Below, piece by piece: positions 1 to 4,209 of a stretch of DNA of 4,209 bases. A program made the position numbers and the translations under genes. The stretch's first letter is position 1. Every line of letters starts with the position of its first letter. This DNA comes from a virus. Lineage: Duplodnaviria > Heunggongvirae > Uroviricota > Caudoviricetes. The DNA is taken from the IMG/VR virus record IMGVR_UViG_2737471850_000003; one strand, given 5' to 3'. The notes below the pieces were generated by a model that made no database searches, was not told the origin of the DNA, and worked only from the letters and a program-made list of their open reading frames with translations.

Positions 1-363
1 TGATTCAGTAACGATGTTAAATTTGATCCCTACTGTTTCATAAAGAGATTTAAGCAATTCCTTCTGACTAGAACCTTTTTTTTGAATATCTAAAAAACCT
101 GCATATCTGAAGAGTTTCGCGTTCTTTTCACTTCTTGCAATGGCTTTTATTTTTCGTTGATATTGACTTTCGGATAGGTAACCTGCATTAAGTAGATAAA
201 GCGTTTCATCTAAGATAAATCGTCTATCCTCCACTGCAAATTGCTTAATCCATTTGCTGACATGTTCAGAGTTCATACCTTCAGCCGGAGGATATTTATA
301 ATCGCTCAACTTTTCAGCAATTTTATTGATTACTTTTTCACCAGATAAAATATTCGAGGACAT
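1..363 (-). CDS. Hypothetical protein, partial (start codon at 363, 3' end beyond the left window edge; at least 121 codons visible). AT-rich foreign gene of unknown function.
   Basis: Manual translation of the reverse complement gives an uninterrupted frame from ATG (complement of 361-363) to position 1: MSSNILSGEKVINKIAEKLSDYKYPPAEGMNSEHVSKWIKQFAVEDRRFILDETLYLLNAGYLSESQYQRKIKAIARSEKNAKLFRYAGFLDIQKKGSSQKELLKSLYETVGIKFNIVTES... An AGGA Shine-Dalgarno lies about 8 nt upstream of the ATG on the minus strand. Missing from the supplied ORF track because no stop codon falls inside the window. Lys-rich, AT-rich codon usage unlike the neighbouring phage genes. Confidence 0.5.
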   Translation of the reverse strand, partial: MSSNILSGEKVINKIAEKLSDYKYPPAEGMNSEHVSKWIKQFAVEDRRFILDETLYLLNAGYLSESQYQRKIKAIARSEKNAKLFRYAGFLDIQKKGSSQKELLKSLYETVGIKFNIVTES

Positions 364-393
364 AAAAATTCCTTTTCACAACACAGAATCTAA

Positions 394-421
394 AAAATAA
401 GAATACTTTTATTTATTTCAA
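394..421 (-). promoter_or_regulatory. Putative sigma70 promoter for the AT-rich minus-strand gene (-35 TTGAAA at 416-421, -10 TATTTT at 394-399, 16-nt spacer).
   Basis: Hexamers read on the minus strand; 5/6 match to TTGACA and 4/6 to TATAAT; located about 30-55 nt upstream of the ATG at 363. AT-rich context makes chance matches likely. Confidence 0.25.
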
Positions 422-479
422 GTATAGACCGTATATTCAACTACTTTTTTTTATAGTAGGGAGATACCGATCACAATTT

Positions 480-536
480 TTAGATATCTAATGTGATGGT
501 TTAATAACCAGCAGTCTTACGTGTTAATTCACGTAA
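480..536. repeat. Two palindromic elements in the divergent intergenic region: 12-bp perfect palindrome TTAGATATCTAA (480-491) and 7-bp inverted repeat TTACGTG-N6-CACGTAA (517-536).
   Basis: Direct reading of the sequence; both are perfect. Candidate operator or protein-binding sites. Not terminators: no T-run follows the hairpin on either strand. Confidence 0.3.
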
Positions 537-745
537 AAAAACTCATCAAACCTTCCTCTTTTCAGTTAATTCTTTTAAGAATAAACATCAGTAACTCGGG
601 CCGGGCTTAATGATACGGTTGGCGAATCACACTTGTTTCCCCATACGTCGAAACCGTGGGAGGATTTACGCGCAAAGAGCTCAATACGTGGAAGATTACC
701 CAGCAACCGAACCAGCATTTCACGCACGCAGTCTGGTTTACGTGA

Positions 746-1462
746 GTGCTCATGTCGCGGCGAGGTGTAGTGCTGGATGATCGAGGCGTCCTGCTGTGGT
801 GCCCGCTTACCGGGATCGACGTGAGAGCTGTCGAACAGGGGGATGATGCATGGCACAAATTACGGCTCGGCGTCATCACCGCTTCAGAAGTTCACAACGT
901 GATAGCAAAGCCCCGCTCAGGAAAGAAGTGGCCTGACATGAAAATGTCCTACTTCCACACCCTGCTGGCTGAGGTTTGCACCGGTGTGGCTCCGGAAGTT
1001 AATGCTAAGGCGCTGGCCTGGGGAAAACAGTACGAGAACGACGCCAGAACCCTGTTTGAATTCACTTCCGGCGTGAATGTTACTGAATCCCCGATCATCT
1101 ATCGCGACGAAAGTATGCGCACCGCCTGCTCTCCAGATGGTTTATGCAGTGACGGCAACGGCCTTGAACTGAAATGCCCGTTTACCTCCCGGGATTTCAT
1201 GAAATTCCGGCTCGGTGGTTTTGAGGCAATAAAATCGGCTTACATGGCCCAGGTGCAGTACAGCATGTGGGTGACGCGAAAAGATGCCTGGTACTTTGCC
1301 AACTATGACCCGCGCATGAAGCGTGAAGGCCTGCATTATGTCGTGATTGAGCGGGATGAAAAGTACATAGCGAGTTTTGACGAGATGGTGCCGGAGTTCA
1401 TCGAAAAAATGGACGAGGCACTGGCTGAAATTGGTTTTGTATTTGGGGAGCAATGGCGATGA
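746..1462 (+). CDS. exo: Lambda exonuclease (Red-alpha, Exo) homologue with a divergent or truncated N-terminus; possibly a pseudogene.
   Basis: From [48 protein letters not shown]... to the C-terminal ...[11 protein letters not shown] the translation matches phage lambda Exo as I recall it, nearly residue for residue. The first ~11 lambda codons are replaced by non-lambda sequence. The track start at 746 is a GTG directly after an in-frame TGA (743-745); the first ATG is at 752; no convincing Shine-Dalgarno precedes either. Confidence 0.85.
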
Positions 1463-1641
1463 CGCATCCTCACGATAATATCCGGGTAGGCGCGATCACT
1501 TTCGTCTACTCCATTACAAAGCGAGGCTGGGTATTTCCCGGCCTTTCTGTTATCAGAAATCCACTGAAAGCACAGCGGCTGGCTGAGAAGATAAATAATA
1601 AACGGGGGGCTGTATGCATAAAGCATCTCCCGTTGAGTTAA
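1453..1641 (+). CDS. Lambda exo-xis region small protein, orf60a-like.
   Basis: Position immediately downstream of exo and overlapping its stop, as in lambda. The second ATG at 1459 has a GGGGAG Shine-Dalgarno 8 nt upstream and gives exactly 60 aa, so 1459 is the likelier start. Identity is from gene order, size and recalled similarity, not a search. Confidence 0.6.
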
Positions 1642-1805
1642 GAACGAGTATCGAGATGGCACATAGCCTCGCTCAAATTGGAGTCAGGTTTGTGCCAATA
1701 CCAGTAGAAACAGACGAAGAATTTCATACGTTAGCCGCATCCCTTTCACAAAAGCTGGAAATGATGGTGGCGAAAGCAGAAGCAGATGAGAGAGACCAGG
1801 TATGA
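1614..1805 (+). CDS. Lambda exo-xis region small protein, orf63-like (63 aa).
   Basis: 63-aa ORF overlapping the end of the orf60a-like gene by 28 nt; G-rich Shine-Dalgarno (GGGGGG, 1604-1609) upstream of the ATG; size and position match lambda orf63. Confidence 0.6.
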   Translation: MHKASPVELRTSIEMAHSLAQIGVRFVPIPVETDEEFHTLAASLSQKLEMMVAKAEADERDQV

Positions 1806-1885
1806 CAACCACTGAATGCATTTTTCTGGCAGCGGGCTTCATATTCTGTGTGCTTATGCTTGCCGACATGGGACTTGTTCAATGA
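1802..1885 (+). CDS. Possible 27-aa hydrophobic micropeptide (MTTTECIFLAAGFIFCVLMLADMGLVQ), translationally coupled on both sides.
   Basis: ATG at 1802 overlaps the orf63 stop (ATGA, 1802-1805); its own stop TGA (1883-1885) overlaps the ATG at 1882 of the next ORF. Hydrophobic core suggests a single transmembrane helix. Not in the ORF track (too short). Could be a chance frame. Confidence 0.2.
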   Translation: MTTTECIFLAAGFIFCVLMLADMGLVQ

Positions 1886-2097
1886 CACCTCAGCAGGAAA
1901 ACGCCCTTCGCAGCATTGCCCGTCAGGCTAATTCTGAAATCAAAAAAGCCAGACAGCAGTTTCCGGATAAAAACGTCGATGACATTTGCCGTAGCGTACT
2001 GAAGAAGCACCGCGAAACGGTAACGCTGATGGGATTCACACCGACTCATTTAAGCCTGGCGATCGGCATGTTAAACGGCTTCTTTAAGGAGCGATGA
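1816..2097 (+). CDS. Exo-xis region protein, orf61-like (93 aa from ATG 1816; 71 aa from the alternative ATG at 1882).
   Basis: ORF in the expected position between the orf63-like and TraR-like genes. Neither candidate start has a strong Shine-Dalgarno; the 1882 start is favoured by its ATGA overlap with the upstream small ORF. Assignment to lambda orf61 is by position only. Confidence 0.45.
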   Translation: MHFSGSGLHILCAYACRHGTCSMTPQQENALRSIARQANSEIKKARQQFPDKNVDDICRSVLKKHRETVTLMGFTPTHLSLAIGMLNGFFKER

Positions 2098-2189
2098 ACA
2101 TGAAAAGCAAAATCATCAGGGAGCTACAGGCTCCTTTTTTATTATTCGCATTCACCCTCAAGCGTATTAACCAACAATTCAGGGATTAA
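2094..2189 (+). CDS. Possible 31-aa small ORF (MNMKSKIIRELQAPFLLFAFTLKRINQQFRD).
   Basis: ATG at 2094 overlaps the stop (2095-2097) of the preceding ORF in the ATGA arrangement; ends 7 nt before the TraR-like start. Not in the ORF track. Speculative. Confidence 0.15.
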   Translation: MNMKSKIIRELQAPFLLFAFTLKRINQQFRD

Positions 2190-2195
2190 TGGAAG

Positions 2196-2414
2196 ATGGC
2201 AGACATCATTGATTCAGCATCAGAAATCGAAGAATTACAGCGCAATACAGCAATAAAAATGCGTCGTCTGAACCACCAGGCTATATCTGCCACTCATTGT
2301 TGTAAGTGTGGCGATCCCATAGATGAACGAAGACGCCTGGCCGTTCAGGGTTGTCGGACTTGTGCAAGTTGCCAGGAGGAGATCGAACTTAAGAACAAAC
2401 AATGGGGATTGTGA
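2196..2414 (+). CDS. DksA/TraR-family C4-type zinc-finger protein (phage TraR-like; position corresponds to lambda orf73).
   Basis: 72-aa protein with a C-x2-C-x17-C-x2-C motif (Cys35, Cys38, Cys56, Cys59: CKCGDP ... CRTCASC) and an acidic N-terminal segment (DSASEIEELQ), as in F-plasmid TraR and phage TraR-like proteins. Confidence 0.75.
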   Translation: MADIIDSASEIEELQRNTAIKMRRLNHQAISATHCCKCGDPIDERRRLAVQGCRTCASCQEEIELKNKQWGL

Positions 2415-2461
2415 TGGCCTCAAAGCAGCAAATTTCAACATCGTCCAACTGAGGTGTAAAA

Positions 2462-2701
2462 ATGTTCAGAATCATTTTTCCTAACACCTGGTACGTCGAC
2501 CACCACGGCACTCCCTGCAAAATCCTGCGTTCTACCCACAACAAAGTTCACTACATCCGAAAAGGCAGAACATGTATCGCCAGCATGTTCCGCTTTAATC
2601 ATGACTTTGAACCTGTGAATAAAGCTGATGCAGATCGGATAGCAGAAGAGATCGAAACGGCAGAACACATTAAGAAGTTACGTGCCATACGCAGGAAATA
2701 G
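2462..2701 (+). CDS. Hypothetical 79-aa protein of unknown function, occupying the position of lambda ea22/ea8.5.
   Basis: Good Shine-Dalgarno (GAGGTG, 6 nt before the ATG at 2462). His/Cys-rich N-terminal half, basic C-terminus (KKLRAIRRK). I do not recognise a family. Confidence 0.5.
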   Translation: MFRIIFPNTWYVDHHGTPCKILRSTHNKVHYIRKGRTCIASMFRFNHDFEPVNKADADRIAEEIETAEHIKKLRAIRRK

Positions 2702-2830
2702 AAAAATTGATAAATTCAATACTGCATTTCTCAGCATTAAATTTATCTCTATGACCAGTCAAGAGATGTACCTGCCATGAGCTTAATATCATGTCAGATA
2801 TATCGGTCACAAACTCCCTCAGCAGCTAAG

Positions 2831-2836
2831 AGGAGG
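2831..2836 (+). promoter_or_regulatory. Shine-Dalgarno (AGGAGG) for xis.
   Basis: Canonical AGGAGG 4 nt upstream of the xis ATG at 2841, within the 139-bp AT-rich intergenic region 2702-2840. Confidence 0.5.
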
Positions 2837-2840
2837 ACAA

Positions 2841-3077
2841 ATGTCTCGACTAATCACTTTACAGGACTGGGCTAAAGAAGAATTTGGGGACTTAGCACCA
2901 AGTGAGCGAGTTCTGAAAAAATACGCGCAAGGGAAAATGATGGCCCCACCCGCTATAAAAGTTGGTCGCTACTGGATGATTGACCGAAATTCCCGTTTTG
3001 TAGGAACGCTGGCAGAACCGCAACTCCCAATAAACGCAAACCCAAAACTCCAACGGATAATCGCTGATGGCTGCTAG
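2841..3077 (+). CDS. xis: Excisionase (Xis-like recombination directionality factor).
   Basis: 78-aa protein immediately upstream of, and overlapping by 11 nt, the integrase gene; N-terminus (MSRLITLQDWA...) and the PP..K.GR segment parallel lambda Xis (MYLTLQEW...PPPVKDGRE). Not identical to lambda Xis. Confidence 0.8.
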   Translation: MSRLITLQDWAKEEFGDLAPSERVLKKYAQGKMMAPPAIKVGRYWMIDRNSRFVGTLAEPQLPINANPKLQRIIADGC

Positions 3078-4209
3078 ACCCCGATCTCACAAAATCTCTA
3101 TACCCAATTTATATTGCAAATTAGATAAGCGAACCGGAAAGGTATATTGGCAATACAAACATCCACTATCCGGTCGTTTTCATAGCTTAGGAACTGATGA
3201 GAATGAAGCAAAACAAGTTGCTACTGAAGCAAATACCATTATTGCTGAACAACGTACCAGACAAATATTAAGCGTCAATGAGCGTCTGGAAAGAATGAAA
3301 GGCAGGCGCTCAGACATTACGGTGACAGAATGGCTTGATAAATATATTTCTATCCAGGAGGACAGGCTGCAACATAATGAACTAAGACCCAACTCCTATC
3401 GGCAAAAAGGCAAACCCATTCGTCTTTTCCGTGAGCATTGTGGAATGCAACACCTCAAGGATATTACCGCACTTGATATTGCCGAAATAATTGATGCTGT
3501 AAAGGCTGAAGGTCATAACAGGATGGCGCAAGTCGTGAGAATGGTGTTGATCGACGTCTTCAAAGAAGCACAACACGCAGGACATGTTCCGCCAGGATTT
3601 AACCCAGCGCAGGCAACAAAACAACCGCGAAATCGAGTAAACCGCCAAAGATTGTCACTGCCCGAATGGCAGGCAATATTTGAAAGCGTAAGCAGACGGC
3701 AGCCCTATTTAAAATGCGGCATGCTACTTGCTCTTGTTACTGGACAACGTTTAGGCGATATCTGCAATTTGAAATTCTCTGATATATGGGACGACATGTT
3801 GCACATTACTCAGGAAAAAACCGGTTCAAAACTTGCTATTCCGCTTAACCTGAAATGCGATGCTCTGAATATTACCCTTCGTGAAGTTATATCTCAGTGC
3901 AGGGATGCTGTTGTTAGTAAATATCTGGTCCATTACCGTCACACTACCTCTCAAGCAAACAGAGGAGACCAGGTTTCTGCAAATACTCTGACAACGGCTT
4001 TTAAAAAGGCCAGGGAAAAATGTGGCATAAAATGGGAGCAAGGAACTGCGCCCACATTTCATGAGCAGCGATCTCTGTCAGAACGGTTATATCGGGAACA
4101 GGGTCTGGATACGCAAAAGTTGTTAGGCCATAAATCCAGAAAAATGACCGACCGATACAATGATGATCGTGGTAAAGACTGGGTTATCGTAGATATCAAA
4201 ACAGCATAG
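3067..4209 (+). CDS. int: Tyrosine site-specific recombinase, lambda Int family (prophage integrase).
   Basis: 380-aa ORF with lambda-Int-like N-terminal arm-binding region (RPRSHK..PNLY...RTGK) and conserved catalytic residues by alignment to lambda Int: Arg228 (TGQR, codon 3748-3750), Lys255 (KTGSKLAIP), His332/Arg335 (FHEQRSLSERLY), His355 (LLGHKS), Tyr364 (RYNDDRG, codon 4156-4158). Stop codon is the last three bases of the window. Confidence 0.95.
   Translation: MAARPRSHKISIPNLYCKLDKRTGKVYWQYKHPLSGRFHSLGTDENEAKQVATEANTIIAEQRTRQILSVNERLERMKGRRSDITVTEWLDKYISIQEDRLQHNELRPNSYRQKGKPIRLFREHCGMQHLKDITALDIAEIIDAVKAEGHNRMAQVVRMVLIDVFKEAQHAGHVPPGFNPAQATKQPRNRVNRQRLSLPEWQAIFESVSRRQPYLKCGMLLALVTGQRLGDICNLKFSDIWDDMLHITQEKTGSKLAIPLNLKCDALNITLREVISQCRDAVVSKYLVHYRHTTSQANRGDQVSANTLTTAFKKAREKCGIKWEQGTAPTFHEQRSLSERLYREQGLDTQKLLGHKSRKMTDRYNDDRGKDWVIVDIKTA

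Follow-up and report, generated by a model that had tools for sequence, protein, structure and literature searches.

An AT-rich prophage ORF identified as the start of the anti-phage gene DS-32A, its position beside a truncated exo after a deletion, and the NADAR pairing of its relatives

The window (the whole stretch of DNA analysed here, 4,209 nt) covers part of a lambdoid prophage integrated beside icd, with matches to Exc, Phage_integrase and then Iso_dh. The excisionase (positions 2841–3077) and the tyrosine integrase (3067–4209) are encoded on the plus strand, as is a chimeric, 5′-truncated lambda exo predicted in the ORF list to be a 236 aa protein (752–1462). The start of exo overlaps the 3′ remnant of an MT-A70 methyltransferase pseudogene (575–811, minus strand), which comprises the last 78 or so codons and the stop codon, 237 nt in all. 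The gene of this remnant is annotated as ‘MT-A70 family methyltransferase, internal stop’ in two intact relatives of the prophage, L001 and L002. The left end of the window carries another minus-strand ORF, assigned here to DS-32A, which begins with an ATG at 363–361 and leaves the window at the left edge after 121 of its 343 codons (1–363). The genes bet, gam and kil are missing from the window, according to the ORF list and a comparison with L001.

The GC content is 33.6% in the visible part of the ORF (1–363) and 27.5% in the intergenic region upstream of it (364–574, minus strand); it is 31.0% in positions 1–590, 52.7% in 575–811 and 52.1% in 812–1462. The initial annotation had described an AT-rich left end with an incomplete minus-strand gene and without bet, gam and kil, and in this it was correct, the GC content of 1–590 being 31.0% vs about 52% in the methylase remnant and exo. 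It had overlooked that exo is 5′-truncated and fused to foreign sequence and that positions 575–811 are an MT-A70 remnant. The Shine–Dalgarno sequence that it had proposed is present as AAGGAA at 374–369, 5 nt ahead of the ATG. Its candidate promoter fares less well; a sigma-70-like site (TTGAAA, 16 nt, TATTTT) does exist on the minus strand at 421–394, but a promoter scan gave two sites vs 2.0 ± 1.4 in shuffled sequences, which is chance level. Between the methylase stop codon and DS-32A there is a hairpin formed by a perfect 7-bp inverted repeat, TTACGTG N6 CACGTAA (517–523/530–536); it is a canonical terminator in neither direction and could be an operator. An imperfect 10-nt palindrome (565–586) spans the methylase stop codon. 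A PRPP riboswitch was considered and rejected; an Rfam search of window 1–1000 matched no RNA family and gave no riboswitch.

The 121-aa fragment alone matches the NCBIfam model NF053875 (DS32_1_antiphage) with an E-value of 2e-27 and 96.3 bits, as well as the Pfam family PF24390 (PRTase-CE) with an E-value of 3e-8; its NF053875 score lies below the cutoff solely because the protein is truncated. The full DS-32A of L001 scores 312.7 bits against this equivalog model (cutoff 250) and its DS-32B scores 257.5 bits against NF053876 (cutoff 240), so both pass; the same protein pair matches Pfam PRTase-CE and NADAR. In contig L003, the DNA of which is identical to the window, the product of the complete ORF shares 342 of 343 residues with WP_000097610.1, the sole change being F84L, which is also the one difference from the L001 protein. 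The partner gene, located beyond the window at L003 7980–8591, overlaps DS-32A by 11 nt, and its product is 202/203 identical to published DS-32B. A megablast search of 5,426 complete E. coli genomes matched window 1–811 in 18 genomes at 99.8–99.9% identity. In the complete genomes with a match, the 343 aa ORF is followed, again with an 11-nt overlap, by a 203 aa ‘NADAR family anti-phage protein’; the database annotation of the matched region reads ‘phosphoribosyltransferase-like (anti-phage) protein’ and ‘MT-A70 family methyltransferase’.

The full 4,209 nt are 100% identical in contigs L003, L004, L006, L007 and L008. L004 (GCA_000819325.1, contig JWYY01000010.1), the probable source contig of the window, begins 2 nt ahead of it and cuts DS-32A, so the ORF most likely breaks off at the left edge because the contig does. 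The sequence goes on to the left in L003 (411 kb), L006 and L007, all three of which encode an intact 343 aa DS-32A followed by a NADAR protein of 203 aa (L003) or 206 aa (L006 and L007). Since these three contigs match the window without a difference and include the whole gene, a different ORF to the left of the window is unlikely. Leftward extension, proposed in the initial annotation as a check, has supplied the complete gene and its neighbour. The ORF had been regarded there as belonging to no recognised family and as the most likely site of something undescribed; both statements have to be withdrawn, as the fragment alone is recognised by two family models and the full protein is published DS-32A. 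A match to a known phage-related protein is, moreover, one of the outcomes that the initial annotation itself had named as refuting its reading. The suggestion that compositionally foreign prophage cargo might include a defence gene was well founded, DS-32A being a validated anti-phage protein. As the gene is already in the NCBI annotation under its name and has been validated by experiment, the locus holds no new system.

DS-32 is a two-gene anti-phage system from the DefensePredictor study (DeWeirdt et al., bioRxiv 10.1101/2025.01.08.631726; Science 2026, PMC13092281). The cloned unit consists of WP_000097610.1 and WP_032260665.1 from an E. coli strain and has the code NADR (DefensePredictor supplementary tables); this allele provides defence when cloned alone, with its native promoter region, in MG1655. 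The −log10 EOP values are 3.70 for Bas26 (about 5000-fold protection), 1.60 for RB69, 0.88 for SECphi18, 0.62 for T5 and 0 for Bas67 (Table S7, PMC13092281), all of them obtained with the 342/343-identical published allele and not with the window copy. Bas26 is a T5-like phage of the Markadamsvirinae according to the BASEL paper (PMC8594841), and not a Seuratvirus with 7-deazaguanine DNA. The DefensePredictor authors proposed no mechanism; they noted that the NADAR protein is like the DarTG antitoxin and the PRTase unlike DarT, and suggested ‘TA partner swapping’.

Several observations bear on whether the copy in the window is functional. The draft contigs L004, L005 and L008, from three independent assemblies, break at window positions −2, 442 and −52, respectively, inside or just upstream of DS-32A; the breaks probably reflect low coverage of DNA with 27–34% GC, and an IS insertion may be their cause in some isolates. 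In strain 23CRST001 (NZ_AP045758.1 3638720–3639336), the match is confined to window 195–811 and DS-32A appears to be truncated after about 56 codons. It might be supposed that the prophage is decaying and non-inducible and that its DS-32 copy is disrupted or unexpressed, in short, inert debris. This would agree with the loss of immunity, replication and Red functions, with the contigs that break in or next to DS-32A and with the apparently truncated copy of 23CRST001. However, the same deleted prophage is found in L003, L006 and L007 with intact ORFs of 343 aa and 203/206 aa, F84L is the sole difference from the tested DS-32A allele, and contig breaks in DNA of 27–33% GC are, in all likelihood, common assembly artefacts. 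Such a loss of function is considered improbable.

The contact between DS-32A and exo has a simple origin. Window 1–811 is colinear with L001 12001–12811 and window 805–1616 with L001 20152–20963. In E. coli 65COLEC, window 1–811 is present at 99.9% and window 805–4209 at 100% identity, with the two halves 6,033 bp apart. The interval contains the rest of the MT-A70 pseudogene, P, O, a YdaT-domain gene in the position of cII, cro-like and cI-like repressor genes, a hypothetical gene, kil, gam, bet and the first eight or so codons of exo. The window prophage has lost about 6.03 kb, from the MT-A70 pseudogene to approximately codon 9 of exo, and the parental form is intact in 65COLEC. The junction (805–811) shows microhomology, GCTTACC on the methylase side and GCGTACC on the exo side. 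Together with the colinear halves, this microhomology indicates a simple deletion in a lambdoid prophage and not an insertion of cargo at bet/gam; DS-32A lies back-to-back with exo because the deletion has removed the genes between them. Related prophages bear defence-type cargo of other kinds; in L001, a SIR2-family protein is encoded between the cI-like repressor gene and kil (16574–18175), and strain CB7286 has a SNIPE-associated-domain protein in the slot described below.

The chimeric exo product begins with 19 new N-terminal residues derived from antisense methylase sequence, and Exo follows from about residue 10. Exactly this 236 aa product recurs in at least 14 public contigs; the junction is therefore real and no artefact of assembly, and the deleted prophage circulates as a clonal lineage. 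The junction is present in draft and SRA assemblies and in none of the 5,426 complete E. coli genomes; a search for the exact junction in species-representative genomes did not find it, nor was a record found for a variant of the chimeric exo starting at GTG-746.

Intact relatives share the gene order P, ren or MT-A70, cargo, a 33-aa ORF, ybcN and ninE; in L001 and L002, DS-32A lies downstream of P and the MT-A70 pseudogene, ahead of ybcN/ninE. In the same slot, the DLP12 prophage of K-12 carries emrE-ylcJ-ybcK-ybcL-ybcM and strain 64 carries emrE-ybcK-P22AR. The slot of strain CB7286, between ren and the nin genes, encodes a SNIPE-associated-domain protein (L013 8817–10319) and a P22AR-domain protein. 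DS-32 is thus AT-rich cargo of a variable slot located between the replication module and ybcN/ninE. The initial annotation had proposed a comparison with related prophages to see whether the cargo varies; it does, from DS-32 to emrE-ybcKLM, SNIPE-associated and emrE-ybcK-P22AR genes. Its placement of the cargo at the bet/gam position was mistaken; the home slot follows P and the methylase gene and precedes ybcN/ninE, and exo was brought into contact by the deletion. Taken jointly, the identity of window 1–363 as the start of DS-32A and the architecture, with an origin in the cargo slot and a deletion of about 6.03 kb, can be asserted with high confidence. In K-12 DLP12 (L012 13235–13824), a truncated P abuts a truncated exo, an independent deletion of a like kind. 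The findings suggest that lambdoid prophages of this sort recurrently lose the immunity/replication/Red block and keep the cargo slot. The locus exemplifies prophage decay with microhomology-mediated loss of immunity, replication and Red genes and retention of defence cargo.

The linked MT-A70 allele is found in 19 of the 5,426 complete E. coli genomes, indicating that DS-32 is rare; these are the same 19 genomes, 23CRST001 among them, that match the DS-32A part of the window. The carriers differ in their integration module, which is of the argU/intD type in L001 and of the icd type in L002. DNA and tblastn searches showed DS-32A to be absent from 50,697 deposited phage genomes, and it is known solely from prophages and islands. 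A functional link between the adjacent MT-A70 gene and stand-alone DS-32 was considered but found no support, as this gene is no longer intact and 54 stand-alone pairs have a mixed set of upstream neighbours.

A search with DS-32A yielded 164 homologues at E ≤ 1e-3; PF24390 is present in all 120 DS-32A homologues among the matches listed. In an alignment of 61 homologues with 28–76% identity, the residues W38, Q41, F42, Q94, G97, S99 and Q100 of the window fragment are invariant. Beyond the window, the invariant positions include D137 and D138, which lie in the PRPP-loop motif FVYIDDVSFSG, as well as N206, R241, R256 and E260. The block GLGFGGT..YRNCPNN.PLAFWWG, also invariant, contains the PNNxP signature noted in retron-associated PRTases (PMC12746101). 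DS-32A has the Rossmann-like core and the acidic PRPP-binding loop of the type I PRTase fold. The best 50–60 structure matches listed for it are housekeeping type I PRTases; a PDB sequence profile search gave one match at E of about 1, confined to the PRPP loop of PyrR, and no close solved structure.

DS-32B aligns to E. coli YbiA (2b3w) with an E-value of 2e-11. Its motif IVE123HSEKD128QFW131 fits the pattern E-x4-D-x2-W, and residues E44, E123, D128 and W131 correspond, with the same spacing, to E43, E125, D130 and W133 of a solved NADAR (PMC11543638); an Arg is found where the solved protein has K50. The conserved Glu equivalent to E125 places DS-32B in the YbiA (Glu) subfamily and not in the DarT1-linked Asp subfamily. 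Against the riboflavin-intermediate N-glycosidase model TIGR02464, DS-32B scores 70.6 bits, narrowly under the cutoff of 73.7.

The pairing with NADAR extends far beyond E. coli. Seven of seven distant homologues looked up singly have a NADAR gene directly downstream. Relatives were detected in 304 stretches of species-representative genomes, and 80 loci from many phyla were kept; ORFs were called in these loci and scanned with HMMs built for this work, and 79 loci had a PRTase-CE ORF. A NADAR-domain ORF lies directly downstream on the same strand in all 79. The NADAR protein stands alone in 56 loci, is fused to the N-terminus of a type I HsdS in 18 and is fused to a DUF1156 adenine methylase in five; it is thus joined to a subunit for DNA recognition (HsdS) or DNA methylation (HmaB) in 23 of the 79 loci. 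What lies upstream of the stand-alone pairs varies from locus to locus. The obligate pairing and the fusions are possibly a new observation; a search of the open-access literature found no description of the R-M- or Hma-embedded or fused forms.

The loci with an HsdS fusion (L015, L020, L038, L045, L047, L081, L097, L098 and others) have the PRTase-CE gene within a complete type I R-M operon of the order hsdM / PRTase-CE / NADAR::hsdS / hsdR, for example, at L038 3692–12139. hsdM is directly upstream of the PRTase-CE gene in 14 of the 18 loci, and genes of these operons overlap by 4 nt (L038, L097 and others). Pfam searches of two to three sampled loci confirmed HsdM_N/N6_Mtase, Methylase_S and HSDR_N/ResIII/T1R_D3. 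In the Hma-embedded loci (L050, L060, L061, L073 and L090), the order is HmaA helicase, PRTase-CE, NADAR::HmaB DUF1156 adenine methylase and HmaC ATPase (for example, L073 2386–12975). PADLOC models identify the DUF1156 methylase as HmaB (1,102 bits) and the flanking proteins as HmaA (1,583 bits) and HmaC (660 bits); the HmaC of L073 has an added Swt1-like HEPN domain. Enterobacter mori LMG 25706 (L022 6001–9671) encodes two tandem PRTase-CE paralogues, of which one is 76% and the other about 52% identical to DS-32A; two small unknown ORFs lie between them, and one common NADAR protein, 83% identical to DS-32B, follows downstream.

According to published data, NADARs hydrolyse ribosyl links to exocyclic amines, such as those in guanine-N2-ADP-ribose and 5-phosphoribosylamino-pyrimidines (PMC11543638). 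The mechanism preferred here, put forward tentatively and from sequence, is that DS-32A, with its type I PRTase fold and intact PRPP loop, would take PRPP as a 5-phosphoribosyl donor and add the 5-phosphoribosyl group to a nucleobase nitrogen, probably in DNA, which would be toxic to replication. DS-32B would act as the antidote by hydrolysing the N-glycosidic bond of the adduct, and infection would upset the balance between the two proteins, leading to abortive infection in the manner of a toxin–antitoxin system. This adduct mechanism is favoured because of the hydrolysis of exocyclic-amine links by NADARs, the gene order and overlap resembling those of DarT–NADAR pairs and the fusions to DNA-specific subunits. 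What speaks against modification of DNA is that, to our knowledge, PRTases use free bases and not polymers. In addition, metabolite pools are the target of both related defence PRTases studied so far (PMC12746101, PMC11961720); Retron-Eco11 lowers PRPP by about 50% (PMC12746101) and ShosT perturbs purine metabolism (PMC11961720).

The latter findings lend themselves to a metabolic explanation, in which DS-32A of the infected cell consumes PRPP or makes aberrant nucleotides and so starves phage replication. DS-32B would then be a second enzyme and not an antidote; for instance, it might cleave the nucleotide to base and ribose-5-phosphate, setting up a futile cycle that hydrolyses PRPP. The PRTase-like effector of Retron-Eco11 shares the PNNxP signature and its activation depletes PRPP (PMC12746101), and the 5-phosphoribosylamino-pyrimidine substrates of YbiA-type NADARs are small molecules. 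On the other hand, the reported fall in PRPP is modest, and depletion leaves the NADAR fusions to DNA-specificity and methylase subunits (23/79 loci) unexplained. Metabolic depletion is possible, though on the doubtful side.

The embedded forms invite two further readings, which, like the preceding ones, are not all mutually exclusive. The gene prrC lies within the type I R-M locus EcoprrI, and PRTase-CE/NADAR could, by analogy, serve as a second line of abortive infection, triggered by phage inhibition of a methylation-based defence complex. Through its attachment to HsdS or HmaB, the NADAR protein would signal the condition of that complex, and the stand-alone E. coli form would sense another cue. 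The hsdM/PRTase-CE/NADAR::hsdS/hsdR operons with their 4-nt overlaps fit such a guard, as do the hmaA/PRTase-CE/NADAR::hmaB/hmaC operons. In 56 of the 79 loci, DS-32 included, the pair nevertheless stands alone among heterogeneous neighbours, and published DS-32 worked when cloned alone in MG1655. A guard of this kind is unlikely and would apply mainly to the embedded forms. The preferred adduct mechanism can also be extended to these forms; PRTase-CE and NADAR might be the writer and eraser of an undescribed phosphoribosyl adduct on DNA bases, acting alone (DS-32) or plugged into methylation-based immunity, where the eraser fused to HsdS or to the Hma methylase would clear self DNA or guard the complex. 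This extended version is rather unlikely and is offered as speculation. The pattern of NADAR pairing and fusion offers a testable direction for the mechanism of DS-32 and points to DNA as the target; the remaining interest of the locus lies in this mechanism and in the R-M- and Hma-embedded relatives.

The closest known system is DS-32 itself, with the same two genes in the same order, an 11-nt overlap and proteins 342/343 and 202/203 identical; the window differs in holding the first 121 codons only, in F84L and in its setting, a deleted prophage at icd. Effectors of type III-A retrons, such as Retron-Eco11, have a type I PRTase core, a PRPP loop and the G...PNNxP signature in common with DS-32A, which matches the PADLOC model PRTase_III-A weakly (E = 7.5e-11). 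Unlike them, DS-32A is partnered by NADAR and is without RT, ncRNA, C-terminal winged-helix domain and C-terminal tail; there is no RT among the called genes of L003 or the other loci examined and no Rfam retron RNA in window 1–1000, and DS-32A ends at residue 343 without a wHTH, which sets it outside type III-A. In the DarT1–NADAR (DarTG1) and YarT–YbiA pairs, as in DS-32, a NADAR N-glycosidase directly follows, and is coupled to, a transferase of a nucleotide group, in both cases with a role in phage defence. The first gene of DS-32, however, encodes a PRTase fold with PRPP, not an ADP-ribosyltransferase with NAD+, so that its upstream gene is PRTase-CE and no DarT toxin or other ART, and DS-32B belongs to the YbiA (Glu) type rather than to the BC4488 (Asp) type. 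ShosTA is, like DS-32, a two-gene defence system with a PRTase-fold protein, there the toxic component, but its antitoxin, ShosA, is a DNA-binding protein and no NADAR; no ShosT entry is found among the best 50–60 structure matches listed for DS-32A. In genomic position, the counterpart is the ren–nin slot of DLP12 (emrE-ybcK-ybcL-ybcM), which likewise lies between P/ren and the 33-aa ORF with ybcN/ninE; DLP12 differs from the window prophage in its cargo and in deletion endpoints that are independent.
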